This document shows, in pieces, positions 7,977-43,773 of a DNA stretch of 43,773 bases. Both the position numbers and the translations under genes were made by a program. The number at the start of each line of letters is the position of its first letter. Position 1 is the first letter of the stretch. Location: assembly GCA_039033735.1 (NCBI GenBank), contig JBCCCA010000001.1, forward strand, positions 1 through 43,773. The letters run 5' to 3'. This DNA comes from Pseudomonadota bacterium. Lineage in GTDB: Bacteria > Pseudomonadota > Alphaproteobacteria > Rhodobacterales > Rhodobacteraceae. The notes beneath the pieces are model-generated. The model was not told the origin of the DNA. It was given only the letters and a program-made list of their open reading frames with translations, and did no database searches.

Positions 7977-8000
7977 TGAACCCCCTCGGCAAGATCCCAA

Positions 8001-19391: not shown

Positions 19392-19464
19392 CTTACCCTC
19401 GCGTTAGGTTACGCGCGAGCTATGCGGCAGAACATGTGATGTGACAAGAGAACCCACGGGAACG

Positions 19465-28209: not shown

Positions 28210-29463
28210 GTGAAAAAGACTCTTATCTCTAGCGTTTCAGTATTGTCGCTCTGCGCTCTTGCTGGTGCGGCATCTGCTGAAACTTTGAAAGTGGGTGTTC
28301 TTGCGACACTCGAAGGAACCTATACCCAATTGGGCGAAGACGGTGTGCGCGGCGTGAAAACCGCGCTGGAAAAAGCTGGCTATTCAGCGGGTGGTCGCGA
28401 CATCGAAATCATTATCCAGTCGACAGATACCAGCCCTGACAGCGCGGTGCGCGGCGCGCGCAAGCTTGTCGAGCAAGATGGTGTTGAAATTGTCGTTGGT
28501 CCGCTGTCGGGGTCTGAGGGTATCGCCATCCGCGACTTCTCCAAGACTGCACCTCAGGTGACTTTTATCAACGGGTCGTCCGGTGCGCTTGAAACCACTT
28601 ATGTGGATCCATCCGAAAACTTCTTCCGGTTCAACACAGAAGGCGGCCAATGGTCTGTTGGTCTTGGCGACTACGTGTTCAACGAGAAGGGCTGGGAAAC
28701 AGTTGCGACCGTAGGCGAGGACTATTCCTTTGTTTATACGCAGGTTATGGGCTTCACGATCGACTACTGCAAAGCCGGTGGCGAAGTTACCGAAGCACTT
28801 TGGGTCCCACTTGGGACAAAGGACTTCGGATCGATCATCGCATCGCTGCCTGATGATGTGGATGCGATCTATCTGGGTCTGGGTGGCGGTGATGCCGTCA
28901 ACTTCCTTAATCAGTACCAGCAGGCAGGGGGCGATGCGAACCTGATTGGTGGCACGATTATGGTGAATGGTGACGTTCTCAACTCCAAAGGAGACGCCAA
29001 GAACGCCCTGATCGGCACACCCTCTTCCGGCCCACAGGCTGACACGTCGGATACACCTGCGTGGAAGGAATACGTGAAGCTCTATCAGGACACATTCGCG
29101 CCTGAAGATCGCTTCCCGTCTCCATCGCTGTTGGCAACGACGTACTACAACGCGACATCTGCCATGTTGGCATGTGTTGATCAGACCGGCGGCAACTTTG
29201 GCGATGGACAGGCCGATCTACGCTCCTGCCTTTCTACTTTGGAGTTGGACAGCCCCACCGGCAAAATCGTACTCGACGAAAACCGCCAGGCGATCGCCAC
29301 CACCTTTGTCAACGAAGTCGTCGAAATGGATGACGGAACGCTGGCGAATGCGATGGTCGCAAAATACGACAACGTGACGCAAACGCTGGGTCTCGACAAA
29401 GCTGCATTCGATGCGCTTGGTCTGCCGTCGCGTGAACTGCCCGAGTGTAAAACCTCATACTAA
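28210..29463 (+). CDS. Liv/HAAT-family (Peripla_BP_6-like) periplasmic substrate-binding protein
   Basis: Signal peptide VKKTLISSVSVLSLCALAGAASAE and LKVGVLATLEGTY. GTG at 28210 is preceded by GGGAGGAA. Confidence 0.8.
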   Translation: MKKTLISSVSVLSLCALAGAASAETLKVGVLATLEGTYTQLGEDGVRGVKTALEKAGYSAGGRDIEIIIQSTDTSPDSAVRGARKLVEQDGVEIVVGPLSGSEGIAIRDFSKTAPQVTFINGSSGALETTYVDPSENFFRFNTEGGQWSVGLGDYVFNEKGWETVATVGEDYSFVYTQVMGFTIDYCKAGGEVTEALWVPLGTKDFGSIIASLPDDVDAIYLGLGGGDAVNFLNQYQQAGGDANLIGGTIMVNGDVLNSKGDAKNALIGTPSSGPQADTSDTPAWKEYVKLYQDTFAPEDRFPSPSLLATTYYNATSAMLACVDQTGGNFGDGQADLRSCLSTLELDSPTGKIVLDENRQAIATTFVNEVVEMDDGTLANAMVAKYDNVTQTLGLDKAAFDALGLPSRELPECKTSY

Positions 29464-29541: not shown

Positions 29542-30603
29542 ATGACCCTGATCACGATGCACTCGCGCATCCACTTTGCCAGCAACATCCTGGAGGAGGC
29601 TCTTCGGGCCGAGATCGACGACCGGCGTCCTGTGGCCCCAGTCCTGATCTATCCCGATGCCTTGGACGGGAGCGAGTTCCTCTCTCGCGTCGAGGAAGGG
29701 CTGCTGAGTTGCAACAAGGTGCACCACTGCATGATCGCACCCAAGCAAACGAAGTATGACACTGCCGATCTTGTCATGGCTTATGCCGACAAGCATGCCG
29801 TTGATCTGATCATCGCCATGGGCAGCGCCGAAGCTGTCATTCATGGTCGCAAGTGCCGCCATGCGATTGGCATGTCACGATATGCTGCCACCACGTGGCC
29901 CGAACGCGGCGTCTTGCAGCATCAGGAGCTTGGGCCTGAATTCTTCATTATTCCCGGCATCACCGGCCTTCCGGACCCTTGTCTGGACACGACGGGCACG
30001 CAAAGGCTCAAGGGAACGCCGCCCACGGTCATCATTTGCGACCCCACTGTCATTGAGAAGGCACAGGAGGCCGAACTGGCGCGCACCATTGCCCAAACCG
30101 TCGGGCGCTGCATGACTGTGTTGACGGCTGATACATTCAATCCGCTGGCAGACGGGCTGGCCATTGACGCGTTGACCCGCATTCACAGCGGAAAAGACAG
30201 CCGCAATCCGCGCGATCTGATGGCCGCCATGTTGAACGGCGCTATTGCGCAGCAAAAAGGGCCCGGCTTCGTTGAAGCGTTTGGCTATAGTTTTGTCAAA
30301 GCCACCGGTCGCGCTGTGGACAGTGCACTGCTGCACCGGGTGCTTTTGGCCCGCATGCTGGCCTCGGAAAAATCCAGCAATCACGAGGTAATCGGTCGGG
30401 TTCTGGGATTGCCAAAGGAGGTGAAAATAGCCGATTTCATTGATAACTTCTGGCAAGAGTTCACACTTCCCGACAATCTGCGTGACATCGGCATGGAGTG
30501 GGAAGAAGTCTCGGAGACACTTGATTTCATGGAGCCCCGCTTTGGCGCGCCACAGATTGGGTCCTCCTGGGAAGTCCGTCAGATGCTGGCCGAGGCGTAT
30601 TGA
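29542..30603 (+). CDS. Iron-containing-alcohol-dehydrogenase-fold protein with apparently degenerate cofactor motifs
   Basis: Length and layout resemble Fe-ADH/DHQS-like proteins. The segment IIAMGSAEAVIHGRK occupies the position of the GGGSxxD NAD motif. No obvious SD. An alternative ATG lies five codons downstream. Confidence 0.5.
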   Translation: MTLITMHSRIHFASNILEEALRAEIDDRRPVAPVLIYPDALDGSEFLSRVEEGLLSCNKVHHCMIAPKQTKYDTADLVMAYADKHAVDLIIAMGSAEAVIHGRKCRHAIGMSRYAATTWPERGVLQHQELGPEFFIIPGITGLPDPCLDTTGTQRLKGTPPTVIICDPTVIEKAQEAELARTIAQTVGRCMTVLTADTFNPLADGLAIDALTRIHSGKDSRNPRDLMAAMLNGAIAQQKGPGFVEAFGYSFVKATGRAVDSALLHRVLLARMLASEKSSNHEVIGRVLGLPKEVKIADFIDNFWQEFTLPDNLRDIGMEWEEVSETLDFMEPRFGAPQIGSSWEVRQMLAEAY

Positions 30604-30618
30604 TCGGCAAGGAAACGC

Positions 30619-32049
30619 ATGAAGCAGAATTACATAAATGGCCAATGGGTGGGCAGCAAAACAGCGACACCCAATATAAATCCGTCGAACACGGATGACA
30701 TCATAGATCACTACGCGACTGCTGGGCGCGCCGAGACGGAACAGGCGGTAGATGCCGCTGCGCGCGCCTTTCAAAGCTGGCGGTTTTCCAATCCTCAAAC
30801 GCGCCACGATTGCCTAAAGGCGGTTGGCGACGGGATCATGGCGCGTGTTGACGAGATTGCGCAGATGCTGGCGCGCGAAGAGGGCAAAATCCTGCGTGAG
30901 GCGCGTGGAGAGACCGAACGCGCGGCGCGGATATTCTACTTTTTTGCAGGCGAGGCGTTGCGGTTGGCAGGCGAGTTGATGGCTTCTGTCCGACCCGGTG
31001 TTTCGGTCGAAGTGACGCGGGAGCCTGTTGGACCTGTGGGATTGATAACGCCGTGGAACTTTCCGATTGCGATCCCGGCTTGGAAAATTGCGCCCGCCTT
31101 GTGTTACGGCAACACGGTCATCTTGAAGCCGGCCGAACTGGTGCCCGGTTCAGCGTGGCTGCTAACCGAAATTATCGCCGAATCCGGCCTTCCGGATGGT
31201 GTCTTTAATCTGTTGATGGGTCCAGGCGCCGTGGTCGGCCAAAGCCTGCTGGATGCGCCGGGCGTCCGGGCGATCAGCTTTACCGGTTCGACCGCGACCG
31301 GTGCAAGGGTGGCCGAGGCGTCGGTGCGGTTGGGCCGAAAGTTCCAACTGGAGATGGGCGGAAAGAACCCGCTTGTGGTGCTGGACGATGCGGATGTCGA
31401 AGTCGCAGCAGCTGCCGCATTGGATGGGGCATTCTTTTCGACCGGCCAGCGTTGTACTGCGTCTTCAAGACTAATTGTCACCGAAGGCATTCATGGTCGC
31501 TTCGTTGAAGTGTTGACTGAAAAGGTTAGGGCCATGAAAGTTGGACCCGCTCTTGATCCGACCTCAAACATGGGGCCCGTCGTCGACCAAACGCAGCTAG
31601 ATCAGGACCTCGGTTTCATTGACGGCGCGCGGCGCGATGGGGCCAATTTGCGTGCAGGCGGCAATCTTGTGTCCTGTGAGACGCCTGGGTTCTTCCTTGA
31701 GCCGACCCTGTTTACAGACACCGACCCCATGATGCGGATCAATCGGGAAGAGGTGTTTGGCCCGGTCGCTTGCGTGATCCGTGCCATCGATTATGATGCG
31801 GCCTTGGCTTTGGCAAATGATACCGAGTTTGGCCTTACAGCAGGTATTTGCACCACGTCCTTGAAGTATGCGCAGCACTTCAAAGCGAACGCACAGGCGG
31901 GTATGGTGATGGTGAATTTGCCCACGGCAGGCGTTGATTATCACGTGCCCTTTGGGGGAACAAAAGGGTCAAGTTTCGGCCCTCGTGAGCAAGGGCGCTA
32001 CGCGGCGGAATTCTTCACAACCGTGAAAACATCCTATGTGAACCCCTGA
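30619..32049 (+). CDS. NAD(P)-dependent aldehyde dehydrogenase (KGSADH/semialdehyde-dehydrogenase-like subgroup)
   Basis: FTGSTATG, LEMGGKNP, catalytic GQRCTASSR and EEVFGPV motifs. Confidence 0.9.
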   Translation: MKQNYINGQWVGSKTATPNINPSNTDDIIDHYATAGRAETEQAVDAAARAFQSWRFSNPQTRHDCLKAVGDGIMARVDEIAQMLAREEGKILREARGETERAARIFYFFAGEALRLAGELMASVRPGVSVEVTREPVGPVGLITPWNFPIAIPAWKIAPALCYGNTVILKPAELVPGSAWLLTEIIAESGLPDGVFNLLMGPGAVVGQSLLDAPGVRAISFTGSTATGARVAEASVRLGRKFQLEMGGKNPLVVLDDADVEVAAAAALDGAFFSTGQRCTASSRLIVTEGIHGRFVEVLTEKVRAMKVGPALDPTSNMGPVVDQTQLDQDLGFIDGARRDGANLRAGGNLVSCETPGFFLEPTLFTDTDPMMRINREEVFGPVACVIRAIDYDAALALANDTEFGLTAGICTTSLKYAQHFKANAQAGMVMVNLPTAGVDYHVPFGGTKGSSFGPREQGRYAAEFFTTVKTSYVNP

Positions 32050-32183
32050 TCAAGGCGGTCATTCATACCCAATCGTCTCTTTTTGGGCGATTTGATTTGC
32101 CAAGATAGCGACTGCTATTGTCTACTTTCAGCGTCTCCATACGCTTCTCTCAGAAGGACGCGGTGGGGCCTGGGAGGACAAAA

Positions 32184-32996
32184 ATGAGTAAAGCTTTGGC
32201 AGTGGGCCACGGCTCGTACGGACGCGCGGCGCTGTACGATCTGGATCGCCCCATTACCACACATGCGCATCGCGAAGGCCACCTTATTTTCTATGTTGGA
32301 GGAGACACACCGCGCATGCGCGTCGGCTCGGATGAAATCATCTGTAACAGTGACACCGCGGCAGCTGTCAGCCCTTGGATGCCTCATTCATTTGAATCCA
32401 ATCAGCGTTGTCTGTCCCTGACGCTTTACATCAAACCGATGTGGTTTCTCGAGAATACCAATTCATCTGATTTTGCACTGAACTTCGGGCGTACATTGCT
32501 GAAGCTCACACCCGAAATCCAGACGACCGTTGCCAAGCTGACGCATCAAATGATGACAGATATCTACGACGCAAGCGTCGAGCATCTGCTGATCGAACTG
32601 ACATCCCTGTGCTATGCCTTGTCGTGGCGTAACATCAAGGCCCCTGCCTTTGACGCGAACACTATGCGCAGCAGTGACTTTCGCATTCGCCGTTCGCAGA
32701 AACTGATGGTGAATTACTTGTCCGACCACGAGGGTCTGGACCATCTCGCGCGCGAGGTCGGACTGTCGCGGCCACATTTCTTCAAGCTTTTCAAAAAGCA
32801 GGCCGGTGTGACGCCGAACGTTTATTTCAACACGCTGCGGTCAGAACGGGCGATTGCAGACCTGATGGAAACCGATAAGTCCGTGACCGAGATCGCTTAT
32901 GATTTGGGCTTTGCAAGCCAGGCGTCTTTTACGCGGTTCTTCTCTCATAATGTGGGAATTGCGCCGTCAGATTACCAACGGGTGGCGCGCCAGTAG
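32184..32996 (+). CDS. AraC-family transcriptional regulator
   Basis: C-terminal double HTH (LAREVGLSRPHFFKLFKKQAGVTPNVYFN, IAYDLGFASQASFTRFFSHNVGIAPSDYQ). The ATG at 32184 is preceded by GGGAGGA. Confidence 0.85.
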   Translation: MSKALAVGHGSYGRAALYDLDRPITTHAHREGHLIFYVGGDTPRMRVGSDEIICNSDTAAAVSPWMPHSFESNQRCLSLTLYIKPMWFLENTNSSDFALNFGRTLLKLTPEIQTTVAKLTHQMMTDIYDASVEHLLIELTSLCYALSWRNIKAPAFDANTMRSSDFRIRRSQKLMVNYLSDHEGLDHLAREVGLSRPHFFKLFKKQAGVTPNVYFNTLRSERAIADLMETDKSVTEIAYDLGFASQASFTRFFSHNVGIAPSDYQRVARQ

Positions 32997-33159: not shown

Positions 33160-34179
33160 GTGAGGGACTTTATTGAGCGTCACTCAATTTGGTCTGCAAT
33201 CATTGCGCTTGTTGCGTTGGTCTTGCTTTACCTCATCTTTGCGATCTGGCCGGAATGGTTGATTGACGCCATTGGGCGCAAGAAGGTCTTCTTGAACGCA
33301 TTGTTCAACGGTATCACTCTGGGTGGTCTCTATTTCCTAGTGGCCTCGGGGTTCACACTGATCTTTGGGCTGATGCGCAATGTGAATATGGCGCATGGAG
33401 GTCTATACCTGCTGGGCGGGTATATCGGATTTTTTGTGGCCGATGCGACCGGGTCTTGGCTTTTGGCGTTTCCAGTTGCGTTTCTGGTCGCCGGTTTTCT
33501 GGGCGTCATTCTGCAGCTTACGGTGTTTCGCCGGATGGAAGGACAGGATCTGCGCCAGACGCTGGTGACGATCGGTATCTCAATCGTGCTGGCGGACTTG
33601 ATGCTATGGGGCGTTGGCGGGGACTTTTACAATATAAACCCGCCCAGCTGGTTGTCGGGTCCGATGGAAACCGGTTTGGTGACATCCCAACGTGTGCGTT
33701 CGTCCGGTGAGGTCGTCACGTCTTATCTCAAGTATCCGATGGTACGGATCGTGATTTTCCTGGCTTCGGTGGCGATTGGGCTGGCGATGTGGCTGGTTCT
33801 GAACAAGACCCGGGTCGGTATGTTGATCCGGGCTGGCGTCGATGACCGCGACATGCTGAGCGCTACAGGCGCGCGCATTCAGCTGGTGTTTGTGGGCGTT
33901 TTCTTTTTCGGCGCAGGTCTGGCGGGGTTGGCCGGTGTGGTGGGGGCCACGTTTCAATCTGCCGCCCCGGGCGAGGATACAAGGTTCCTGCTTGCCTCGC
34001 TTGTCGTGGTAATCGTAGGGGGGATGGGGTCGATCCCCGGCGCCGCTCTTGGCGCATTGTTGATCGGTCTGGCCGAGCAATTCGGCTCCGTCTACTTCCC
34101 AACCTACGCGGTTGTGCTGACATTCCTAATCATGGTGGCGGTGCTGGCGTTCCGCCCCCAGGGTTTGATGGGCCGGTGA
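33160..34179 (+). CDS. Liv/HAAT-family ABC permease (LivH-like) with a ~45-aa N-terminal extension
   Basis: LFNGITLGGLYFLVASGFTLIFGLMRNVNMAHG is typical of LivH. GTG start preceded by AAGGAAG. Confidence 0.85.
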   Translation: MRDFIERHSIWSAIIALVALVLLYLIFAIWPEWLIDAIGRKKVFLNALFNGITLGGLYFLVASGFTLIFGLMRNVNMAHGGLYLLGGYIGFFVADATGSWLLAFPVAFLVAGFLGVILQLTVFRRMEGQDLRQTLVTIGISIVLADLMLWGVGGDFYNINPPSWLSGPMETGLVTSQRVRSSGEVVTSYLKYPMVRIVIFLASVAIGLAMWLVLNKTRVGMLIRAGVDDRDMLSATGARIQLVFVGVFFFGAGLAGLAGVVGATFQSAAPGEDTRFLLASLVVVIVGGMGSIPGAALGALLIGLAEQFGSVYFPTYAVVLTFLIMVAVLAFRPQGLMGR

Positions 34180-34183: not shown

Positions 34184-35236
34184 ATGGCTCTGAGCGAAAC
34201 AACGACATCCCCAAACGAGGACACAAAGGTCTGGATCGAACGGGTCCCGGCACCTTACTGGATCGTCGGTGTGATCCTTTTGATCATCCCGTCCTTCGCG
34301 TCCGACTTTGTTATGTTCCAGATTTTCGGATGGACTTTCATTCTGGGGATGATCGCCACGTCGCTGATGTTTCTGGGCGGTTACGGGGGCATGGTGTCCC
34401 TGGCTCAAATGACTTTTGCAGGGGTCGCGGGCTATATGGTCGCGATCTTCGGCGAAAGCGCGATTGACACGATCTCGCTTGGATGGCCGTGGTATATTGC
34501 GATCCCGTTGGCCTTGATTATTGCGATGCTGTTTGCGACCGCGATCGGCTGGCTCGCCGTGCGCACTGAGGGCATCTACACGATAATGATCACCCTTGCG
34601 ATCGCGGCTGCGTTTTTCTACTTCACGCGCCAGAACTACGACATATTCAACGGCTTTCAGGGGTTTAATTCCGTCCTGCCCCCGCCACTGTTCGGTGTGG
34701 ATTGGCGGGGGCCCGAGGCGTTTTATTATCTGACACTGTTCTGGGCGGCTGCGACCTATTTTGCGGTGCTCTATCTGTCGCGTGCGCCATTTGGTCTTGC
34801 GTTGCAGGGGGTGCGAGACAATCCGCGACGCATGGCCGCCCTTGGCTACAACGTCACCGCCCACCGCGTTGCGGCCTATGCGTTTTCCGCCATCCCGGCC
34901 GGGGTGGGAGGCATCCTTCTGACGTGGCAATCGGCGCAGATCAGCCCAGGCACTGTGGGCATTCAACCGGCCATCGACATCCTGATCATCGCAGTGGTCG
35001 GTGGCCTCAGCCATCCGGTCGGCGCGTTTATCGGTGCGTTCCTTTACGTGGTGCTCAAGACCTTTGCCGTTGATTTCCTGATTGCCATCGGGCTGAGCGG
35101 GGACCGCTTTCAGCTGCTGATCGGCCTAGGCTTTTTGCTTGTCGTGGCATTCTCAGAAGACGGTCTGCTGGGACTTTGGAAGAAACTGCGGGACAGCCGC
35201 AAACGCGACCCTCTTACCGGTGAGGTGCGGGAATGA
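34184..35236 (+). CDS. Liv/HAAT-family ABC permease (LivM-like)
   Basis: Multi-TM protein carrying the LivM-type RDNPRRMAALGYN motif. Confidence 0.85.
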   Translation: MALSETTTSPNEDTKVWIERVPAPYWIVGVILLIIPSFASDFVMFQIFGWTFILGMIATSLMFLGGYGGMVSLAQMTFAGVAGYMVAIFGESAIDTISLGWPWYIAIPLALIIAMLFATAIGWLAVRTEGIYTIMITLAIAAAFFYFTRQNYDIFNGFQGFNSVLPPPLFGVDWRGPEAFYYLTLFWAAATYFAVLYLSRAPFGLALQGVRDNPRRMAALGYNVTAHRVAAYAFSAIPAGVGGILLTWQSAQISPGTVGIQPAIDILIIAVVGGLSHPVGAFIGAFLYVVLKTFAVDFLIAIGLSGDRFQLLIGLGFLLVVAFSEDGLLGLWKKLRDSRKRDPLTGEVRE

Positions 35237-36003
35237 ACGCGCACCCCAATACCGGAACACAAAACGCGCTGGAACTGCGCGGCATGTCCAAGCGGTTCGG
35301 TGCGCTGGCGGCACTGAGCGATATCGAGCTATCCGTGCGCCCCGGCGAGCGGCGCGCGGTTCTTGGCTCGAACGGCGCGGGCAAGACGACGTTGTTCAAT
35401 TGCATAACGGGGGATTTCCCGCCCTCTGAGGGGGCGATCCGCTTTTTTGGCGAGGATATCACGCGCTTTCCGGCCCATGAGCGCATCCGTCGTGGTCTGC
35501 GCCGAACCTATCAGATTTCACTGTTGTTCACTGGTCTGACTGTGATGGACAACGTCTATCTGTCCTGTCTTGGTGTTTCGCGAGGGCGGTTCTCGTTCCT
35601 GCGAGCGCGAAGGGACGACGCGCTTGTCGCCTCGGCCGAGGAGTTGGTTGAAACGGTCAATCTTTGGGATGTGCGCGACACGCTGGTTAACGAACTAAGC
35701 TATGGTCAGCAACGCCAGCTCGAGATTGCCATGGCCCTGTCTGGTGCGCCGCGTTTCATTTTGTTTGACGAACCCGCCGCCGGACTGTCGCCAACCGAAC
35801 GCAGCGAGCTGATCGAGATCCTGACCGGGCTGCCCGGTCATATGGGTTACATCATCATTGAACACGACATGGACGTGGCCCTGCGCGTTTCGGAGTTTGT
35901 GACCATGATGCATAACGGGCGCATCTTCAAAGAGGGCAAACCCGCAGAGATTGAAGAAGACCCCGAAGTCCAGGCGCTTTATCTGGGGGGCGGCGATGAG
36001 TAG
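35233..36003 (+). CDS. Liv/HAAT-family ABC ATP-binding protein (LivG-like)
   Basis: Walker A GSNGAGKTT, signature LSYGQQRQLEIA and Walker B ILFDEPAAGL. ATGA overlap with the permease gene. Confidence 0.9.
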   Translation: MNAHPNTGTQNALELRGMSKRFGALAALSDIELSVRPGERRAVLGSNGAGKTTLFNCITGDFPPSEGAIRFFGEDITRFPAHERIRRGLRRTYQISLLFTGLTVMDNVYLSCLGVSRGRFSFLRARRDDALVASAEELVETVNLWDVRDTLVNELSYGQQRQLEIAMALSGAPRFILFDEPAAGLSPTERSELIEILTGLPGHMGYIIIEHDMDVALRVSEFVTMMHNGRIFKEGKPAEIEEDPEVQALYLGGGDE

Positions 36004-38170
36004 TCCCAGCCTCGAAATCCGCGACCTCAATGTCTACTATGGCCAGTCCCATGCCTTGCAAGGTGTGAACCTGACGCTGGATCACGGCGTGCTTTCAGTC
36101 GTGGGGCGCAATGGCATGGGCAAGACCACCATGTGCAAGGCGATCATTGGGATGGAACCGATCGCGTCTGGGTCTATTTCGTTCAATGGCCAGTCTTTGG
36201 CGGGCATGGCGTCGTCCGAGATTGCGCGGGCCGGGATCGGATATGTGCCGCAAGGGCGCAGGCTGTGGCGCTCGTTGACGGTGGATGAACACCTCAGGCT
36301 GGTGGAGCGGCGCAGGGGTGCTTGGACGATCGAGCGCGTTTATAGTGTCTTTCCGCGTCTGGCAGAGCGCAAGTCAAATGGCGGTTGGCAATTGTCCGGG
36401 GGTGAACAGCAGATGCTGGCCATCGGACGCGCACTTTTGCTGAACCCCAAACTGCTTGTGATGGACGAGCCGACCGAAGGTCTGGCCCCAGTGATCGTCA
36501 ATCAAGTCGCCGAGATGCTGGTGCGTTTGGGCCAAGAGGGTGACATCGATGTGCTCGTGATCGAGCAGAACATCGGTGTTGCGTGCGACGTGGCGTCCGA
36601 TGTGGCGATTATGGTCAACGGAAGGATCAATCGCGTGATGGACAGTGCCACTCTGGCCGCTGACCGCGATTTGCAGCAAGCCCTTCTGGGCGTCGGACGT
36701 CATGCCCATGATGAAACAGATGGCGTGGCGATTGGCAGTCCAAAGGGTACGACGGATACCGAACGCGTCAAGCGGCAGGACAGCTATTCGGTGGCCCGCA
36801 TCTATGATGTGAACCCGACTGCCCCGACAAGGTGGAGCCCGGCCGTCCCGATCTCAATCCTTGAGGGCGCAGCACGCTCGGTCACCGAAACCCCCACAAC
36901 ATCTGGCGAGGTCGTTCCCATGGTCGCAACAAAGGCCCAGTCTGCGCGCGGTGCCGTTTATGTCTGTGGTACGTTTGACACCAAGGGACGCGAGCTGTCC
37001 TTTATGGCAGACATCATCAAGGCGCAGGGCCTGACCGTTAAAACCGTCGACCTGTCGACCACAAGCGGGCAATCCAGCGCCGATGTCCCGCCGCACGTCA
37101 TTGCCTCCAACCATCCGCGCGGAACCTCTGCCGTGTTTACCGGCGACCGTGGCACGGCGGTTGCCGGCATGACCACGGCGTTCGAGCGTTGGATCGCCCA
37201 GCAATCGGACATAGCTGGCCTTATCTCGGCCGGGGGCTCGGGGGGGACTGCGCTGGTGTCTCCTGCGTTTCGCGTGCCGCCGGTGGGCGTGCCCAAGATG
37301 ATCGTCTCAACCGTGGCCAGTGGCAGCACCGAACAATATGTCGGTCCTGCCGACATCGCGATGATGTATTCGGTTGCGGATGTGCAGGGCATCAACTCGA
37401 TCACACGTGAAGTGCTGGCCAATGGCGCCCATGCCATCGCAGGCATGGCCAAGGGGCGGTTGAATGCCAAGCCGACGGACGATGACAAACCGGCCATCGG
37501 CCTGACCATGTTTGGCGTGACGACGCCATGTGTGCAGCAGGTCGTCGCAAATCTGGAAAAGGACCATGACTGCCTTGTCTTCCATGCCACCGGGGTGGGC
37601 GGTCGATCCATGGAAAAACTGCTGGATAGCGGCATGTTGAAAGCGGTTCTTGATCTGACCACGACTGAAGTCTGCGACTATGTGGCGGGCGGTGTGTTCC
37701 CTGCGACAGAGGACCGTTTCGGGGCTTCGATCCGGTCGGGGCTGCCGTTTATCGGATCGTGCGGCGCGCTTGACATGGTGAATTTCGGAGCCCCCGACAC
37801 GGTGCCCGAGAAATATAACAACCGGCTGTTTTACGAACACAATCCGCAGATCACCTTGATGCGCACCACGCCTGAGGAAAATGTTGCCATGGGCCGTTTC
37901 ATCGCGGAGCGGTTGAACCAGATGACGGGGCCTGTGCGCTTTTTCTTGCCAGAAGGCGGAGTGAGCATGCTGGATGCCCGGGGCAAACCGTTCTGGGATC
38001 CCGATGCCAATAAAGCGCTGTTCGAGACACTTGAAAGCACAGTCAAACAAACGCCCAACCGCCAGTTGGTGCGCGTTCCCAATAACATCAATGACCCAGA
38101 ATTTGCGGAGCTGATCATTCGGACCTTCCGGTCGCTCAACGCAAAGTCTTCGCGGGCAAAAGGAGCCTAG
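35996..38170 (+). CDS. Fusion protein: LivF-type ABC ATPase (aa ~1-235), a ~85-aa linker, and a UPF0261 / Tm-1-like ATP-binding domain (aa ~320-724)
   Basis: The N-terminal part has GRNGMGKTT, LSGGEQQMLAIGRAL and LLVMDEPTEGLAP. The C-terminal part has UPF0261 hallmarks: GTFDTKGREL, GGSGGT, PKMIVSTVASG, FGVTTPC, FHATGVGGRSME, GALDMVNFG and TLMRTT. It is a single uninterrupted frame. The ATG at 35996 overlaps the livG-like stop by 8 nt. Confidence 0.8.
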   Translation: MSSPSLEIRDLNVYYGQSHALQGVNLTLDHGVLSVVGRNGMGKTTMCKAIIGMEPIASGSISFNGQSLAGMASSEIARAGIGYVPQGRRLWRSLTVDEHLRLVERRRGAWTIERVYSVFPRLAERKSNGGWQLSGGEQQMLAIGRALLLNPKLLVMDEPTEGLAPVIVNQVAEMLVRLGQEGDIDVLVIEQNIGVACDVASDVAIMVNGRINRVMDSATLAADRDLQQALLGVGRHAHDETDGVAIGSPKGTTDTERVKRQDSYSVARIYDVNPTAPTRWSPAVPISILEGAARSVTETPTTSGEVVPMVATKAQSARGAVYVCGTFDTKGRELSFMADIIKAQGLTVKTVDLSTTSGQSSADVPPHVIASNHPRGTSAVFTGDRGTAVAGMTTAFERWIAQQSDIAGLISAGGSGGTALVSPAFRVPPVGVPKMIVSTVASGSTEQYVGPADIAMMYSVADVQGINSITREVLANGAHAIAGMAKGRLNAKPTDDDKPAIGLTMFGVTTPCVQQVVANLEKDHDCLVFHATGVGGRSMEKLLDSGMLKAVLDLTTTEVCDYVAGGVFPATEDRFGASIRSGLPFIGSCGALDMVNFGAPDTVPEKYNNRLFYEHNPQITLMRTTPEENVAMGRFIAERLNQMTGPVRFFLPEGGVSMLDARGKPFWDPDANKALFETLESTVKQTPNRQLVRVPNNINDPEFAELIIRTFRSLNAKSSRAKGA

Positions 38171-38173
38171 CCA

Positions 38174-38998
38174 ATGCATGATCGCAAAGACCTGATGAAG
38201 AAATTCCGAGCCATGCGTGATGCGGGTGAGCCGATCATTGGCGGTGGCGCCGGGACGGGCCTGTCTGCCAAATGCGAAGAGGCGGGCGGCATTGATCTTA
38301 TCGTGATCTACAACTCGGGACGCTATCGCATGGCGGGCCGCGGGTCTCTGGCCGGGCTGATGCCGTATGGTGATGCAAATGGCGTCGTGATGGAAATGGC
38401 GGGCGAAGTTCTGCCCGTGGTCGAAAGGACGCCTGTTCTGGCAGGTGTTTGCGCAACTGATCCGTTCCGGCTGATGGACAAGTTCTTAGATCAGATAAAG
38501 GCCACCGGATTCTCGGGTGTGCAGAATTTTCCGACCGTCGGCCTGATCGATGGCAATTTTCGCGCCAATCTTGAAGAGACCGGCATGGGCTATGCCCACG
38601 AGGTCGAAATGATCCGCATGGCTCACGAACGCGATCTGCTCACCACACCATACGTTTTCAGCGAAGACGACGCGCGGGCCATGGCCGGCGCAGGCGCGGA
38701 CATTATCGTGGTGCATCTTGGCCTGACCACAGGCGGGTCGATTGGGGCCGAAACGGGCTGCACGTTGGAACAGGCGCCGGCTTTGACGGATGCGTGGGCC
38801 GGCGCAGCGCTTGAGGTCAATCCGGACGCGATCGTTCTGGTTCACGGAGGGCCCGTCGCCATGCCCGAAGACGCGGAATATGTTCTTAAGAATACCAAAA
38901 ATTGCCATGGGTTTTATGGCGCTTCGTCGATGGAACGACTGCCGACAGAAATCGCACTGCGCGAACAGACGGCACAGTTCAAGAAGATTGGGCGTTAA
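38174..38998 (+). CDS. Phosphoenolpyruvate-hydrolase-like TIM barrel (TIM-barrel signal-transduction family; equivalent to the C-terminal domain of plant Tm-1)
   Basis: [55 protein letters not shown] and [17 protein letters not shown] present. It starts 3 nt after the fusion gene stop. Confidence 0.75.
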
Positions 38999-39009: not shown

Positions 39010-42000
39010 ATGACTGGTCAAATCATCGGACAACTAATCTTGTGGCTGATCCTCGCAGTCATTGTGATTTTCATCACGTACTGGGTGATGCACTGGCTGT
39101 ATCGCCGTTCGACTAAGGAAGTCGCGTTCGTACGAACCGGTTTCCTTGGGGAACGTGTTGTGATCGACGGCGGTGCTTTCGTGTGGCCCATCATTCATGA
39201 CATCACTCCGGTCAACATGAACTCGCTTGATTTGGCCATCGAGCGGGTCAGGGAGGAGGCGCTGATCACCGCGGACAATCTGCGGGTCGATGTGAATGCA
39301 GAGTTCTATGTCCGCGTCCGCGGCACCAAAGAGGCGGTCAGCCTCGCGGCCTCGTCGATGGGGCGGCGGACTTTGGAACCTGAACGTCTGAACAGTCTTC
39401 TATCGGGTAAATTCATCTCGGCCCTGCGAACGGTTGCGGCCGAGATGACGCTGGAAGAACTGCATACCAAGCGTTCCGAAGTCACGGATCGTGTGCTTCA
39501 GATTGCGCAGGAAGGTCTTGATAAGAACGGGCTGGAACTGGAATCTGTCGCCATTACCGACATCGATCAGACGGACATCCAGTTCTTCAATCCGTCCAAC
39601 CGCTTTGACGCCATCGGCTTGACCTCTGTCATCGAACAGGTCGAGGCACGCCGCAAGATGCGTAACGACATCGAGCAAGACGCGATCATTCAGATCCGCA
39701 CGCGCAACCTCGAAGCCGAAAAGCAAACCCTTGCCATCGAGCGTGCCTCGGAAGAAGCGCGCCTTGAGCAGGAACGCGACGTCGAATTCCGCCGCGCACA
39801 GCAACGTGCTGAACTGGCCCGCGAGCGCTCTGAGCGTGAAAAGGACGGCGAAGAGGCGACGCTGATCAACCGCGAAGCAATTGAAACCGCACGCATTACC
39901 AATGAAGAGCGGATCGCCGAAGCCCGCATTGCCTCGGAACGCAAAATCCGACAGCAGGAAATCGAGCGCCAGCGCGTCATTGATGAAGCTGAAATCTCAA
40001 CGCGGGAAGCGGTGGAGAAAGCCCGCATCGGGCAGGAGAAAAGCCTCGCGGAAACGCGCATCAAGACCGAAAAGGATACGCAATCGGCGGAAATTGCCGC
40101 CAACGAAGCGGTTGAAAAGGCCCGTATCGCTCAGGAAAAGGCGTTGCAAGAGGCGCGGATCGACAAAGATCGCGAGACCCAATCCAAAGAGATCGAACGC
40201 CAACGTATCGTGGACGAGGCCGGCATTTCGGCCAAGGAAGTGATCGAAAAGGCTCGCATCGCCCAAGAACGCGAAGTGACCGAAGCGCGCATCTCACTTG
40301 AGCTGAACACACGCGAACAGGAAATCGCGCGTAACCTGGCTGTGGATCAGGCGACGATAGCAGCGCAGGAAGCGGCCGAAAAGTTGCGTATTGCGCAAGA
40401 ACGCGGCGTCAATGCCGAGCGGATTGCATCGGACAAGGCCACGCGGGAACTTGAGATCGAGCGGCAAAAGGCGCTGGAAGAAGCGCAAATCGCGTCGGAT
40501 CAGGCAACTGAAGCCGCCCGGATTGCGCGCGAAAAGGCACTGTCGGTCGAGCGTATCGCAGCCGAGCAGGACACCCGCGCCCGTGAGATCTTGCGACAGC
40601 GCGAATTGGACGCACAGCAGATCGTTGCGAGCGAGGAGACGTCGAAGGACCGCATTGCGCAGGAACAGAGGGTGCGCGAACTTGAGATAACGCGGAACCA
40701 GGCCGTTGAGGCCGCCGAGATTGCGTCGAAAGAGGCCGTCGAGGCTCAACGGATTGCACAGGAAGCTGCGACTTCCCTGCGTCAGATCGAAAGTAATGAG
40801 AAGACCTCGGCGCGTGACGTAGAACGCGCGGCCGCCGTCGAAGCAGCCGAGATCGCGAAAGCCGAAGCATTGGAAGCGGCCCGCATCGCCAAGGAGAAGA
40901 AGCTGGCCGCCGAACGCATTGCTTATGAGCAGGATATGCGCGAGCGAGAGATTTCCCGAAATCGCGCGATTGATGTGGCCAATGTGAGCGCCAGTGAAGA
41001 GGTTAGTCACGCGCGGATCGAGGAAGAAAAACGCACGCGTGCCCTTGAGATTGCCAAAGAGGCGGAACTGCGGTCGCGCGAGATCGAAAAGCAGGAGGCC
41101 GTCGAGGCCGCCGAGATTTCGTCGCGCCGTCTGGTCGAACAGCAGCGTATCGAAAAGGAGGCGGAAACAACCGCCGAAAAGATTGCCCGCGATCAAAAGA
41201 TCCGCGCTCTCGAAATCGAACGCAACAAGGCCATGGACGCGGCCCAGATCGCAGCGGACGAGGCCGTCGAAGCAGCCCGGGTGTCCAAGGAAAAGGCCGT
41301 CGATGCCGAACGGATCGGCGCCGAGCAGGAACTGGATGCCAGGAAGCTGGAGCGCAAGAAGGTGCTCGAGCAGTTGGAGATCGGCCGTGTTCAGGCTTTG
41401 CGCGAAGCCGAGATCGCCAGTCAGGAAGAGGTCGAGCGCGCCAAGATCGCGTCAGAACGCGGATTGGACGATGCGCGCATCGGTCACCAAACCGAACGTC
41501 GTCGTCTGGAAATCGAGCGCGAAAAGACGGTCGAGCAAGCCGCGATGGACAAGGCCATCGCGCTTTACCAGAAATCGCTTGATGAAAGTGCCGCAGCCGT
41601 CGAGGCCGAAAATGCCAAGGCACGTGCCCTGGAAGCGGCCGAAAAGGCCAAGACGCTGGCCGAAACCGAAAGTGCCAATCGCGCCAAGACGTTGGAAACC
41701 ATTGCTGCGTCAACAGATGCCGAACGGATGCGTCTGATTGCCGAGGGCGACAAGGTGCGCGCGGCTGTCGAAGCGGAAGCGGCGCGGTTGATAAACGAAG
41801 CCGAGAATGTGCTGTCGGATGAAAGCCGTCACAGCCTCTTTAAACGTAAAATGCTGGAGCATGTCGAAGGCATCATCGCCGCTTCTGCCAAGCCGCTGGA
41901 GAATGTAAGCGATATCAAGATTATGCAGCTTGGTGGGGCTGGCACCCAAGGGCTCGACTGGGCCAACGGGGGTGACGGAGGCTCGGGCGGTGGTTCAGGT

Positions 42001-42231
42001 GGCGGCACAAGCCCCACGGACGAAGTCATGAATTCGGCCCTGCGCTATCGCGTCCAGGCTCCGATGGTCGACAGTCTGATGAAGGATATCGGCATAGACG
42101 GGTCCAACGTCGCGAAGTCCGACATCTTTCGCTCGGCCTCGGACATGACGCGCGCCAATTCGGAAATCCAACGCGCGGAAGCCGCCAAGAAGGCAGCAAA
42201 AGCCAAAGACAGCGACAAGGACAAGTCATAA
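39010..42231 (+). CDS. Flotillin-family (SPFH/band-7) membrane scaffold protein, 1073 aa, with a greatly expanded central repeat region
   Basis: An N-terminal TM helix and SPFH domain (EVAFVRTGFLGERVVIDGGAFVWPIIHDI) are followed by the repeat region. The C-terminus is flotillin-like (LFKRKMLEHVEGIIAASAKPLENVSDIKIMQLGG). The ATG at 39010 is preceded by AAGGGAGG; the ORF from 38902 is a 5' artefact overlapping the previous gene. Confidence 0.85.
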   Translation: MTGQIIGQLILWLILAVIVIFITYWVMHWLYRRSTKEVAFVRTGFLGERVVIDGGAFVWPIIHDITPVNMNSLDLAIERVREEALITADNLRVDVNAEFYVRVRGTKEAVSLAASSMGRRTLEPERLNSLLSGKFISALRTVAAEMTLEELHTKRSEVTDRVLQIAQEGLDKNGLELESVAITDIDQTDIQFFNPSNRFDAIGLTSVIEQVEARRKMRNDIEQDAIIQIRTRNLEAEKQTLAIERASEEARLEQERDVEFRRAQQRAELARERSEREKDGEEATLINREAIETARITNEERIAEARIASERKIRQQEIERQRVIDEAEISTREAVEKARIGQEKSLAETRIKTEKDTQSAEIAANEAVEKARIAQEKALQEARIDKDRETQSKEIERQRIVDEAGISAKEVIEKARIAQEREVTEARISLELNTREQEIARNLAVDQATIAAQEAAEKLRIAQERGVNAERIASDKATRELEIERQKALEEAQIASDQATEAARIAREKALSVERIAAEQDTRAREILRQRELDAQQIVASEETSKDRIAQEQRVRELEITRNQAVEAAEIASKEAVEAQRIAQEAATSLRQIESNEKTSARDVERAAAVEAAEIAKAEALEAARIAKEKKLAAERIAYEQDMREREISRNRAIDVANVSASEEVSHARIEEEKRTRALEIAKEAELRSREIEKQEAVEAAEISSRRLVEQQRIEKEAETTAEKIARDQKIRALEIERNKAMDAAQIAADEAVEAARVSKEKAVDAERIGAEQELDARKLERKKVLEQLEIGRVQALREAEIASQEEVERAKIASERGLDDARIGHQTERRRLEIEREKTVEQAAMDKAIALYQKSLDESAAAVEAENAKARALEAAEKAKTLAETESANRAKTLETIAASTDAERMRLIAEGDKVRAAVEAEAARLINEAENVLSDESRHSLFKRKMLEHVEGIIAASAKPLENVSDIKIMQLGGAGTQGLDWANGGDGGSGGGSGGGTSPTDEVMNSALRYRVQAPMVDSLMKDIGIDGSNVAKSDIFRSASDMTRANSEIQRAEAAKKAAKAKDSDKDKS
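39859..41541 (+). repeat. Coding tandem repeat: about 51 consecutive 33-nt (11-residue, hendecad) units, partly organised as 44-aa super-repeats, inside the flotillin gene
   Basis: I parsed 48 units by hand from 39958 to 41541 with no indel (EIERQRVIDEA / EISTREAVEKA / RIGQEKSLAET / RIKTEKDTQSA ...). Position 2 is I, V or L in every unit. Three weaker units precede them. The units are diverged at the DNA level. Confidence 0.85.
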
Positions 42232-42668
42232 TGGCGCGTGTGTTCGTCTCGACGGTGATCAATGCCCCGGCCGATCGCGTGTGGGATCGCATCCGCGATT
42301 TCAACGGGTTGCCCAAATGGCACCCGAGGATCCGCGACAGCCGGATCGAGGACGCACTGCCCGCAGATCAGGTCGGCTGTATTCGCAATTTCAACCTGCA
42401 GAATGGCAACAACATCCGCGAACAGCTTTTGGGGCTAAGCGATTACGACATGTTCACCACCTACGCGATCCTCGACAGTCCGATGCCGGTCGAAGACTAC
42501 ATCGCCACGCTTCGGCTGACGCCTGTCACCGATGGTGCGCGCTGCTTCGCGGAATGGTCGGCGGAGTTCTCGGTCGATCCGGATATCGAATCCGAATGGA
42601 TCGCCAATATTGGCGGTGACGTGTTTCAGGGCGGGTTCGATGCATTGAAGCGGCATTTCGGCGGGTAG
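42231..42668 (+). CDS. SRPBCC/START-fold (polyketide_cyc2-like) protein, copy 1
   Basis: VINAPADRVWDRIRDFNGLPKWHP is typical of the Bet v1-like superfamily. Its ATG shares one nucleotide with the flotillin TAA (TAATG). Confidence 0.75.
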   Translation: MARVFVSTVINAPADRVWDRIRDFNGLPKWHPRIRDSRIEDALPADQVGCIRNFNLQNGNNIREQLLGLSDYDMFTTYAILDSPMPVEDYIATLRLTPVTDGARCFAEWSAEFSVDPDIESEWIANIGGDVFQGGFDALKRHFGG

Positions 42669-42680: not shown

Positions 42681-43127
42681 GTGGTCAAGGTCTATCGCAG
42701 CACCATTCTGGAAGCGCCCATCGAGGTGGTCTGGGACATCTTGCGCGACTTCAACGGGCATGACCGCTGGCACCCGCTGATCGCGCGTTCCGCAGTCGAG
42801 CGTGGGTATCCATCCGATAAAGTGGGCTGCGTGCGCAGTTTCGAGCTGCAGGACGGTTCGAAATTGCGGGAACGTTTGTTGACACTGAGCGATCTGGAAA
42901 CCGCATTCAGCTACTGCCTGCACGACACGCCCTTGCCGCTGTTCAACTATGTGGCCCACGTGCGCCTGACGCCCGTCACGGATCAGAACTGGACGTTCTG
43001 GGAGTGGGAAAGCCGCTTCGACCCGCCGCCCGACCGCCGCGATGAATTGACAGCCTTGGTGGGCGAAAACGTATATCAATCCGGCTTCGATGCGATCCGG
43101 GCGACGCTAGAACTGGAGAGCGAATGA
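42681..43127 (+). CDS. SRPBCC/START-fold protein, copy 2 (tandem paralog)
   Basis: ILEAPIEVVWDILRDFNGHDRWHP. It appears collinear with copy 1 over much of its length. GTG start. Confidence 0.7.
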   Translation: MVKVYRSTILEAPIEVVWDILRDFNGHDRWHPLIARSAVERGYPSDKVGCVRSFELQDGSKLRERLLTLSDLETAFSYCLHDTPLPLFNYVAHVRLTPVTDQNWTFWEWESRFDPPPDRRDELTALVGENVYQSGFDAIRATLELESE

Positions 43128-43773
43128 CCCGTGTTCTGACTGTACCAACGCTGGCCGAAGCCGCGCATGCCGATGGCGCGATCCTTGGCGGTGGCACGCT
43201 TTTGATGCGGCAGGTCAATGACGCGCCGCAAGAGGTGCCCAACCTTGTCCATGTGACCGATCCCGCCTTGCGTGCGGTGTCGTCTGACGCACACCACTGG
43301 CATATCGGCGCAGGTGTCAGCATGGCGCACATCATCGCCAATGCAGACCTTGCGGCCTTGCATCCGGTTGCTCGCTCAATCGGGGGACCCGCCTTGCGCA
43401 ACATGGCAAGTGTGGGGGGCAATCTTTTTGCGCCGCACCCGTATGGGGATTTCACCGTCGCCCTGTTGGCTCTAGGGGCCGATATTGTCTGGTCTGATGG
43501 GCGCACCCAGGACGTCGAGTCCTTTCTGCGCGGACGCGACATGGCGCGTGGGGCCGTGCAAAGCCTGCGTGTTCCAAAGGTCGCGTCTGATAGTTTGAAG
43601 TACCGCAAAGTCAGCCGGACTAAGCCTAAGGGGATTTCGGTGATGTCCGTGGCCGTCGCCCTGGATCAGTCCGGTGGTCAGATCACCTCGGCCCGCGTGG
43701 CCTTTGGGGCCATGGGGCCGACACCGATGCGCGCACCCTCCGCCGAGGCTGCGCTGCGCGGCGCGCGATTGGA
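43124..43773 (+). CDS. N-terminal part of the FAD-binding (CoxM/XdhB-like, FAD_binding_5) subunit of a molybdenum hydroxylase; the 3' end lies outside the window
   Basis: This ORF is not in the supplied track because it runs off the window. My own translation from the ATG at 43124 gives MTRVLTVPTLAEAAHADGAILGGGTLLMRQ...ARSIGGPALRNMASVGGNLF. ATGA overlap with the preceding gene. Confidence 0.7.
   Translation, partial: MTRVLTVPTLAEAAHADGAILGGGTLLMRQVNDAPQEVPNLVHVTDPALRAVSSDAHHWHIGAGVSMAHIIANADLAALHPVARSIGGPALRNMASVGGNLFAPHPYGDFTVALLALGADIVWSDGRTQDVESFLRGRDMARGAVQSLRVPKVASDSLKYRKVSRTKPKGISVMSVAVALDQSGGQITSARVAFGAMGPTPMRAPSAEAALRGARL

Follow-up and report, generated by a model that had tools for sequence, protein, structure and literature searches.

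In the usual view, an ATP-binding cassette (ABC) importer discharges its solute into the cytoplasm, where soluble enzymes must encounter it. Here we analyzed a 43,773-nt stretch of a Rhodobacteraceae genome (assembly GCA_039033735.1, contig JBCCCA010000001.1; hereafter the window), in which an ATPase of a HAAT-family importer is fused to a UPF0261 domain. Two described proteins bear most directly on that domain. MarK (Saro_1862 of Novosphingobium aromaticivorans, named for multiple aromatic kinase) is a UPF0261 protein that stands alone. Work from 2025 showed that it phosphorylates phenolic hydroxyls with ATP and releases ADP, according to the authors the first catalysis reported for the UPF0261 family; Lys16 lies at its ATP site, Gly195, His219 and His304 hold the phenol in a site that is >90% conserved among homologs, and the enzyme replaces a phenylphosphate-synthase-type kinase in acetovanillone catabolism (PMC12624787). 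Tm-1 of tomato (PDB 3WRV-3WRY), the closest solved relative of the UPF0261 half studied here, has ATPgammaS bound at the equivalent lysine, and its known role, binding of the tobamovirus replicase, is an exaptation. Plants likewise pair UPF0261 with a TIM barrel of the PF09370 family, and in plant Tm-1 the two are fused, with no ABC ATPase. Co-occurrence and co-evolution of UPF0261 and PF09370 have also been documented in bacteria (PMC5028733). For the window locus we favor, tentatively and with slightly less than even confidence, a metabolon in which uptake would be coupled to phosphorylation of a putative substrate at the transporter's cytoplasmic face. The architecture of the fusion, the integrity of its motifs, the structure of its operon, its conservation and the co-variation of the TIM gene with the active site could all be observed directly.

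The fusion is a single open reading frame (ORF) of 724 aa on the forward strand, which runs from an ATG at 35996 to a TAG stop ending at 38170; its first 8 nt are shared with the end of the livG-like gene that precedes it (35233-36003). A HAAT-type (LivF/UrtE-like) ABC nucleotide-binding domain (NBD) is followed by a linker of ~83 aa and a full UPF0261 (Tm-1-like) domain, and the TIM-barrel gene comes next:

35996..36700, forward strand: LivF/UrtE-like NBD, residues 1-235 (Pfam ABC_tran; catalytic motifs invariant; confident AlphaFold2 model)
36701..36949, forward strand: linker, residues 236-318, predicted disordered (pLDDT <50 at 233-316)
36803..36880, forward strand: short linear motif within the linker (Y270..N273 P274..P277 t R279 W280..P285..A293 R294)
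36950..38170, forward strand: UPF0261 (Tm-1-like, MarK-like) ATP-binding/kinase-like domain, residues 319-724 (PF06792 and PF23189)
38174..38998, forward strand: PF09370 TIM barrel ('PEP hydrolase-like', PEP being phosphoenolpyruvate; ortholog of Mll9387 / PDB 2P10; Pfam E 4e-131)

An earlier, sequence-only reading of the window had claimed a LivF-type NBD, a linker and a complete UPF0261 domain in one frame, next to a PF09370 gene, and domain searches bear this out by matching all three families. ABC_tran (PF00005) covers fusion residues 21-160 (E 8e-27), the UPF0261 N-domain (PF06792) residues 320-488 (E 1.6e-56, 191.5 bits) and UPF0261_C (PF23189) residues 498-713 (E 2.5e-92, 308.5 bits), the Pfam cut-off being 27 for each of the latter two; the NCBIfam UPF0261 equivalog NF002673 is reached with 610 bits against a cut-off of 520, so that the C-terminal domain exceeds the cut-offs of all three UPF0261 models. 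The motifs quoted at the time (GTFDTKGREL, GGSGGT, FHATGVGGRSME and GALDMVNFG) were every one located in the translation. The NBD has a Walker A (GRNGMGKTT), Q-loop (PQGRR), signature (LSGGEQQ), Walker B (LLVMDEPT) and switch (IEQN) motif, the last being typical of LivF-type ATPases, and K43, Q86, S134, D157 and E158 are unchanged in every lineage compared. Its nearest named relatives are UrtE and LivF, and it scores under the equivalog cut-offs of both, with 215 bits vs. 286 for UrtE (TIGR03410) and 163 bits vs. 441 for LivF (NCBIfam NF008626). By these scores we class the NBD as a HAAT-family member that is the ortholog of neither. After the NBD, Pfam found no match to any TOBE, NIL/ACT or CBS domain.

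A scan of one genome per species found a relative of the fusion in at least 191 species, mainly Rhodobacterales and Hyphomicrobiales, and 80 loci were fetched for comparison. They include many from Paracoccaceae and the Roseobacter group, together with Roseibium, Hoeflea, Aurantimonas, Rhizobium, Mesorhizobium, Bradyrhizobium, Bosea, Aquabacter and Chelatococcus, and one gammaproteobacterial metagenome-assembled genome (MAG). The NBD and UPF0261 share one uninterrupted frame in 80/80 loci, with a total length of 707-738 aa and a linker of 71-92 aa. The best 120 database relatives (70-94% identical, 710-747 aa) all have the same three-domain architecture, the nearest being proteins of uncultured Paracoccaceae (91-94% identity), and database proteins of the same length and domains number in the hundreds. 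The junction between the halves had earlier been flagged for a missed stop or frameshift, and the architecture for being a singleton; neither concern held. An assembly or annotation artefact that joined two genes is ruled out by the stop-free frame of the window and of the 80/80 loci, which come from independent genomes and MAGs, and by the hundreds of proteins of equal length, and we assign it practically no probability. The fusion is genuine, old and conserved.

A literature search turned up no paper describing an ABC-UPF0261 fusion. NCBI labels the proteins 'ABC transporter permease' (P0001-P0120; L081 16056-18218), a name that is wrong, as the fusion has no membrane domain, and that conceals the architecture from name-based searches; the JGI protein name states it correctly. 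In a neighbor-joining tree of UPF0261 domains, the fused proteins were monophyletic in just 0-3 of 100 bootstraps, with the unfused domains of Ensifer, P0128 and P0131 interleaved. The NBD tail LLGVGRHxHDE, which the fusions have in common, argues for a common ancestry of most of them. Since the UPF0261 tree resolves no single fused clade, fusion or fission may have occurred more than once.

The UPF0261 half aligns with MarK (PDB 9MPY) across the whole domain (201 bits, ~40% identity) and with Tm-1 (3WRY) at 336 bits and ~50% identity. In the HMMER alignment, K330, G507, H530 and H615 of the fusion correspond to K16, G195, H219 and H304 of MarK. All four, K330 lying in FDTKG, are invariant in a 55-sequence alignment, and K330 supplies the ATP-contacting lysine (K20 in Tm-1, K16 in MarK). 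The function of the UPF0261-TIM pair had been described in the sequence-only reading as not established. For UPF0261 this has been overtaken by the MarK kinase (PMC12624787), whereas the TIM partner and the pair as such are still uncharacterised.

The TIM gene begins 3 nt past the fusion stop, as had been noted, and matches PF09370 over its full length (436 bits vs. a cut-off of 33.8). Against Mll9387 (2P10) it scores 382 bits with about 64-68% identity, and its AlphaFold2 model (pTM 0.81) superposes on 2P10 with a Foldseek TM score of 0.85. Its top 120 homologs are 86-97% identical, and by this measure the barrel is under very strong constraint; the invariant loops, at residues 48-66, 121-129, 185-194 and 251-257, are low-confidence segments of the model and are probably mobile. 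The family name 'PEP/phosphonopyruvate hydrolase' is a guess that rests on no demonstrated activity. The Mesorhizobium loti entry Mll9387, an ortholog-level match, is a structural-genomics structure deposited as a 'putative phosphonopyruvate hydrolase', and we know of no PF09370 member in which PEP or phosphonopyruvate hydrolase activity has been assayed. The gene contexts that we viewed agree with the earlier statement, and with published work, that PF09370 normally adjoins UPF0261 in bacteria (PMC5028733). The two domains are not on one chain in the window, as they are in the plant Tm-1L type, and form separate genes divided by the TAG at 38168-38170. This TAG and the TIM ATG share a frame with one codon between them (38168-38176, TAG CCA ATG), and read-through of the lone stop would yield an NBD-UPF0261-TIM triple fusion resembling plant Tm-1L; in the other loci the spacing varies from -4 to +22 nt, with one outlier of 157. 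Elsewhere in the family, P0146 (754 aa) is a UPF0261-TIM fusion of the plant type, and P0254 (684 aa) is a TIM barrel-UPF0261 fusion, with the order reversed relative to plants.

The co-variation of the pair became apparent when the linker and UPF0261 domain were searched against 1.84 billion representative proteins, which gave 4,338 family clusters with several more ABC_tran-UPF0261 fusions among the best matches. Three of these (P0136, P0166 and P0175) lie in the same type of cluster, with a flotillin homolog directly after the fusion, and tblastn across their loci found no TIM gene. Their UPF0261 signatures compare with those of the window as follows:

DTKG in the window: DTRG in P0136, DVNS in P0166, DSDE in P0175
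GGSGGT in the window: TGTIGS in P0136, GGSRTA in P0166, GGEATA in P0175
FGVTT in the window: ADVVM in P0136, SGASA in P0166, TAATT in P0175
FHATG in the window: FAADG in P0136, FDP-- in P0166, FDALA in P0175
EHNPQ in the window: EYAPG in P0136, RVDAY in P0166, RLGPA in P0175

All five signatures are degenerate in the three lineages, in which the five catalytic residues of the NBD are intact. Identity to the window protein is distributed as follows:

P0136 (TIM-less): NBD 81%, UPF0261 43-44%
P0166 (TIM-less): NBD 75%, UPF0261 32-38%
P0175 (TIM-less): NBD 68.5%, UPF0261 40-44%
TIM-containing lineages: NBD 55-84%, UPF0261 50-76%

Wherever the UPF0261 residues are intact, the TIM gene is present (the 80 loci, L095/L096 and L097); the divergent fusions P0121 and P0130 have intact residues and a TIM gene, in one case divergently transcribed. 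Because absence of the TIM gene coincides with decayed signatures, the comparison supports the idea that UPF0261 catalysis and the TIM barrel are kept or lost jointly, as one functional unit. The TIM-less UPF0261 domains nevertheless remain full length and recognizable by Pfam, without stops or large deletions, despite about 57-68% divergence. Since truncation is what one would expect of a neutral domain at the C-terminus, the tethered domain appears to have a catalysis-independent role as well; P0136 is a singleton without close relatives, and this retention argument rests on the missing stops and deletions. By NBD identity the three lineages are not mutual nearest relatives, which suggests that the TIM losses were independent. 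They do group together in the UPF0261 tree, a grouping that may be long-branch attraction.

These observations also bear on a regulatory gate, in which UPF0261 and the TIM barrel would sense ATP or a cytoplasmic metabolite and modulate ATP hydrolysis by LivG/LivF, in the manner of the regulatory C-termini of MalK, MetN and ModC or of the CBS domains in OpuAA. The textbook position of a regulatory accessory domain is indeed C-terminal to the importer's NBD, Tm-1 binds ATPgammaS without known catalysis, and the domain is kept when catalytic residues are lost. The known regulatory domains, however, are small, pack closely and as a rule occur on both NBDs, whereas the domain here is enzyme-like, measures 400 aa and is attached through a disordered tether of ~80 aa to only one of two different NBDs. 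Its conserved residues are exactly the catalytic and substrate residues of MarK, and the TOBE, CBS and ACT domains of other systems are absent from the fusion (Pfam). Moreover, the ATP and ligand pockets of the TIM-less lineages are destroyed, so that sensing through them cannot be what retains the domain. We regard a gate as unlikely, if still worth entertaining. Of the two mechanisms proposed in the sequence-only reading, the comparative data favor transport-coupled modification for the lineage of the window, where the catalytic residues do not vary and their integrity goes with the TIM gene; metabolite gating is rated lower.

The linker (residues ~236-318) had been described as a Thr/Pro-rich stretch of ~85 aa. 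The length (~83 aa) and a moderate richness in Thr and Pro stand, but it is no featureless tether. AlphaFold2 predicts both flanking domains confidently and residues 233-316 with pLDDT <50; the single-chain model of the fusion (pTM 0.51) does not pack the domains together. Mean column conservation is lowest in the linker (0.54, vs. 0.84 in the NBD and 0.75 in UPF0261), yet it contains the near-invariant motif Y270-x-x-N273-P274-x-x-P277-t-R279-W280-s-x-x-P285...A293-R294, of which N273, P274, P277, R279, W280 and A293 are invariant in the 55-sequence alignment, and a second conserved patch, G-T-T-D-T, at 251-255. In this alignment and in the model, the linker bears the signature of a flexible tether with a short docking motif, more than a passive spacer. 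The motif is kept in the TIM-less P0136 and P0166, lost in P0175 and reduced to a PTRW core in P0121 and P0130. A docking site for the TIM barrel was considered for it and ruled out, the motif being intact in two lineages that have no TIM gene.

The survival of this motif in two TIM-less lineages fits a structural adaptor, in which the domain and the linker motif would dock the transporter to flotillin, SRPBCC proteins or a molybdenum (Mo) hydroxylase encoded nearby, with catalysis secondary and inherited. So do the full length of the domain after active-site decay and the company of flotillin and two SRPBCC genes in every lineage, even without TIM or the Mo-hydroxylase. Set against this, a pure adaptor has no need of the tight constraint seen in the great majority of members on the catalytic residues and on TIM (86-97% identical), the unfused module of Ensifer described below has no flotillin, and the contacts with flotillin, SRPBCC or the Mo-hydroxylase remain putative. 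A mainly structural adaptor seems to us rather improbable.

Unfused relatives place the fusion in a wider context. The closest unfused UPF0261 protein (58% identical), on an Ensifer plasmid, is encoded with a TIM barrel of 70% identity and an SRPBCC gene of 49% identity, the UPF0261-TIM pair standing directly after four genes of a BMP-family ABC importer; no flotillin accompanies this module. Paraburkholderia phymatum has the pair after the gene for UgpC, the ATPase of a sugar-type ABC importer, and in Rhizobium and Sinorhizobium the pair stands back to back with another ABC importer. The association with importers thus recurs across three ABC families, with the window fusion as its covalent extreme, which is suggestive, although chance neighboring of plasmid catabolic genes with transporters has no control here. 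The same gene order in unfused form in Ensifer would also suit a neutral 'Rosetta-stone' fusion, in which a shared pathway and co-expression were fixed without mechanistic coupling, as would the long, disordered linker and the failure of the UPF0261 tree to resolve one fused clade. A neutral join sits poorly, however, with a fusion kept in 80/80 loci across orders, with a linker held to 71-92 aa that carries an invariant motif, and with a domain that persists even when catalytically dead, and we think there is little chance that it is the explanation.

The genes around the fusion were compared by tblastn of the window proteins against the 80 fetched loci. All are on the forward strand:

28156..29463, forward strand: periplasmic substrate-binding protein (Peripla_BP_6, HAAT family; Pfam E 5.6e-47; collinear in nearly all loci)
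29542..30603, forward strand: divergent protein of 353 aa resembling iron-containing alcohol dehydrogenases, a variable accessory (weak matches to these and to 4-hydroxybutyrate dehydrogenase)
30619..32049, forward strand: aldehyde dehydrogenase, a variable accessory (Pfam Aldedh E 3e-156; absent from many distant loci)
32118..32996, forward strand: AraC-family regulator (Pfam HTH_18; collinear in all loci reaching that far)
33160..34179, forward strand: LivH-type permease (Pfam BPD_transp_2; 63-97% identical across loci)
34184..35236, forward strand: LivM-type permease (Pfam BPD_transp_2; conserved across loci)
35233..36003, forward strand: LivG-type ATPase, the unfused NBD of the heterodimer (Pfam ABC_tran and BCA_ABC_TP_C)
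39010..42231, forward strand: flotillin-like SPFH protein of 1073 aa (Pfam Band_7 and Flot; after fusion and TIM in all loci)
42231..42668, forward strand: SRPBCC (Polyketide_cyc2) protein 1 (Pfam E 7.6e-26; present in divergent clusters too)
42681..43127, forward strand: SRPBCC (Polyketide_cyc2) protein 2 (Pfam E 6e-21; 49% identical to the SRPBCC of the Ensifer pair)
43124..43773, forward strand: Mo-hydroxylase FAD subunit, N-terminal 216 aa (from translation; runs off the window end)

The collinear cassette comprises the substrate-binding protein, the AraC regulator, LivH, LivM, LivG, LivF::UPF0261, the TIM barrel and the flotillin-like gene, so that the fusion is encoded with the LivH/LivM permeases, the LivG ATPase and the Peripla_BP_6 binding protein of a HAAT importer. 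The packed order is LivH-LivM-LivG-LivF::UPF0261-TIM-flotillin-SRPBCC-SRPBCC, with a four-subunit Mo-hydroxylase next in most lineages. From livH to the window end, genes overlap or are separated by no more than 12 nt, and no terminator-like site was found in these intergenic gaps. The adjacency of fusion and TIM gene had been recognized in the sequence-only reading, which missed the larger conserved operon with flotillin, two SRPBCC genes and usually the Mo-hydroxylase. The two SRPBCC genes are conserved in 70/80 loci, and the set that is constant across lineages consists of LivH, LivM, LivG, LivF::UPF0261, flotillin and the two SRPBCC proteins. Upstream, the 29542-30603 protein has no significant Pfam or PDB sequence match, and its homolog in Yoonia is annotated as an iron-containing alcohol dehydrogenase; beyond close relatives it is 26-37% identical, and it is lost in the Bosea and Bradyrhizobium loci.

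Under the metabolon reading, LivF::UPF0261 would serve both as the energising ATPase of a HAAT-family (LivHMGF-type) importer and as the anchor of a small-molecule kinase. A solute delivered by LivH/LivM would be phosphorylated by the tethered UPF0261 domain at the cytoplasmic exit, with conversion of ATP to ADP; the TIM barrel would act next on the phosphorylated intermediate, and the product would pass to downstream enzymes assisted by the SRPBCC proteins. The tether would set a 1:1 stoichiometry and hold the enzyme close to the transporter, the assembly would be kept at the membrane, probably inside a flotillin-organised domain, and UPF0261 may have a second, non-catalytic role in docking or scaffolding. 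Four elements of this scheme are inferred: that this member is an active kinase, what its substrate is, what the TIM barrel does and whether channelling in the kinetic sense takes place.

Three reasons make a hydroxylated aromatic or N-heteroaromatic compound the probable solute. One is that the hydroxyl-binding site of MarK is conserved in the fusion. Another is the binding protein, whose nearest solved relatives are 4ZPJ and then 4EY3/4EVS/4EVQ/4F06. We take 4EY3, 4EYG, 4EVQ, 4EVS and 4F06 to be binders of benzoate derivatives from R. palustris, which the literature bears out only partly, the ligand assignments of RPA0668 and RPA0985 being the sole ones confirmed there, and indirectly. A third is the precedent of 3-hydroxypyridine dehydrogenase HpdA, an SRPBCC-dependent Mo-hydroxylase that needs a kinase pair of the phenylphosphate-synthase type (bioRxiv 10.1101/2020.01.08.898148).

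Several points weigh against the metabolon. The match of the binding protein to the presumed aromatic-acid binders is weak (103 bits). Kinase activity has been demonstrated in one UPF0261 member only, and that one works without a TIM partner. The ketone-binding H348 of MarK is L659 in the fusion, as it is Leu in Tm-1, and neither acetovanillone carboxylase genes nor the acvCDEF/hpeCBAD carboxylase-phosphatase genes were found in the window or in related clusters; because of both, we class the fused domain, from its sequence and gene context, as a relative of MarK with a different substrate and not as its ortholog. For the model of the TIM barrel, whose activity is putative, Foldseek returned nothing beyond 2P10 but generic barrels (TM scores 0.53-0.60). 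A disordered tether of 80 residues does not by itself enforce nearness to the translocation pathway, and to our knowledge there is no established precedent for channelling from the exit of an ABC transporter to a tethered enzyme. Finally, the retention of catalytically dead UPF0261 domains means that catalysis is not the fusion's only reason.

The window ends within the FAD subunit of the Mo-hydroxylase. In full-length relatives this gene is followed by a 2Fe-2S subunit, a molybdenum cofactor (Moco) large subunit split in two ORFs of ~572-650 aa and ~190-345 aa (L081 22525-29714; L084 14948-21966), a MoxR ATPase and a CoxE-type von Willebrand factor A protein. The F/S/L/M subunit layout recalls that of Eubacterium barkeri nicotinate dehydrogenase, and among the downstream catabolic enzymes no NCBIfam equivalog cut-off was reached. 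The Mo-hydroxylase was considered as an obligate partner and ruled out, the core module occurring without it in L095 and L097; because it is absent from these two lineages, it is an accessory. In the L095 cluster, which has no Mo-hydroxylase, a single chain (14461-15951) joins the second SRPBCC domain to a Zn-dependent alcohol dehydrogenase, which suggests that the SRPBCC proteins serve whichever oxidoreductase a cluster has.

The flotillin-like gene starts with an ATG at 39010, 11 nt past the TIM stop, behind a GGGAGG ribosome-binding site. Its product has an N-terminal transmembrane helix with basic residues, an SPFH domain, ~700 aa of repeats with an 11/44-residue periodicity (44-residue hendecad repeats, 4 x 11) and a flotillin C-terminal domain. 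Since basic residues follow the N-terminal helix, the bulk of the protein should be cytoplasmic. It measures 782-1167 aa (median 979) in the 72 loci with a downstream Mo-hydroxylase and 488-542 aa in two lineages without one; L030 is an exception, with 1160 aa and no Moco gene within 5.6 kb. The length differences arise through expansion of the 44-residue repeat. It is conceivable, if a long shot, that the operon encodes a flotillin-enclosed uptake compartment. On the cytoplasmic side of the membrane, the SPFH protein would build a cage that surrounds the importer; inside it, the tethered UPF0261 kinase and the TIM barrel would phosphorylate the emerging solute, and the SRPBCC proteins and the Mo-hydroxylase would be drawn in as well. 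Repeat expansion would then lengthen the wall where a Mo-hydroxylase belongs to the cluster, with which L030 does not fit. If true, the operon would be an ABC-based counterpart of group translocation within a protein-bounded membrane microdomain, and its flotillin the first in bacteria whose client is genetically defined.

Two other loci of the window were noted in passing. On the reverse strand, 5649-8015 encodes a protein of 788 aa in which DUF1989 is fused to a glycine-cleavage-T-type aminomethyltransferase domain. It adjoins a betaine-type (OpuAC) ABC transporter, and the region is probably a locus for methylamine or osmolyte demethylation. Also on the reverse strand, 17799-20852 has in a row a thiamine pyrophosphate-dependent enzyme, a phosphoribosyltransferase-like protein and a TIM barrel whose weak match to BtpA stays under the Pfam cut-off, and adjoins a second ABC importer whose ATPase (23607-24845) bears a TOBE domain.

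An importer ATPase covalently tied to the first enzyme of a pathway would, if true, be a new form of coupling between transport and metabolism. The locus also gives a defined context to the widespread UPF0261/PF09370 pair, the ancestor of the plant virus-resistance protein Tm-1. Its flotillin may be among the few bacterial flotillins that share an operon with a probable client, and the organising role of that flotillin is directly testable, as cultured carriers exist, among them Roseibium album CECT 5095, Aurantimonas coralicida DSM 14790, Bradyrhizobium denitrificans LMG 8443 and Yoonia sp. SS1-5; the TIM-less lineages provide ready-made pseudo-enzyme controls. The operon is thus a rare genetic handle on a possible physical coupling of uptake, first-step metabolism and membrane organisation.

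Among known systems, LivF and UrtE of HAAT importers have the same motifs and the same operon logic (binding protein, LivH, LivM, LivG, LivF), and differ in that the window protein adds a C-terminal extension of 490 residues. In carrying an extra domain after the NBD of a binding-protein-dependent importer, the fusion resembles MalK, MetN, ModC and OpuAA. Those proteins bear small ligand-binding regulators on both NBDs, whereas the domain here belongs to an enzyme family, is joined through a long disordered tether to just one of the NBDs and has a partner protein of its own. MarK has the same two-subdomain UPF0261 fold and the same ATP-site Lys and hydroxyl-binding Gly/His/His, but is a stand-alone homodimer without a TIM partner or ABC fusion and is encoded with the acvCDEF carboxylase genes. 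The HpdA system of Ensifer adhaerens HP1 is likewise a catabolic cluster, which brings an ABC transporter and an ATP-dependent hydroxyl kinase together with a multi-subunit Mo-hydroxylase and a separate SRPBCC protein. Its kinase, as in AcvAB, HpeHI and CreHI, is of the phenylphosphate-synthase type (PEP-utilising, related to pyruvate phosphate dikinase) and is not fused to the transporter, and the system has neither a flotillin nor a PF09370 barrel. With the phosphotransferase system the likeness is conceptual only, in that a solute is phosphorylated on entry; there is no homology, and that system uses PEP and a phospho-relay through the permease, whereas here an ABC importer and a merely tethered, soluble-type ATP-dependent kinase would be coupled putatively. 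In concept, and with no family membership implied, the locus would by analogy work most like an ATP-driven counterpart of group translocation or a transport metabolon. ABC importer ATPases with C-terminal accessory domains are already known, and the fusion proteins are already in databases; what is new is an enzyme-family domain with its own partner, carried by one of two NBDs on a motif-bearing disordered tether and encoded in an operon with a flotillin.

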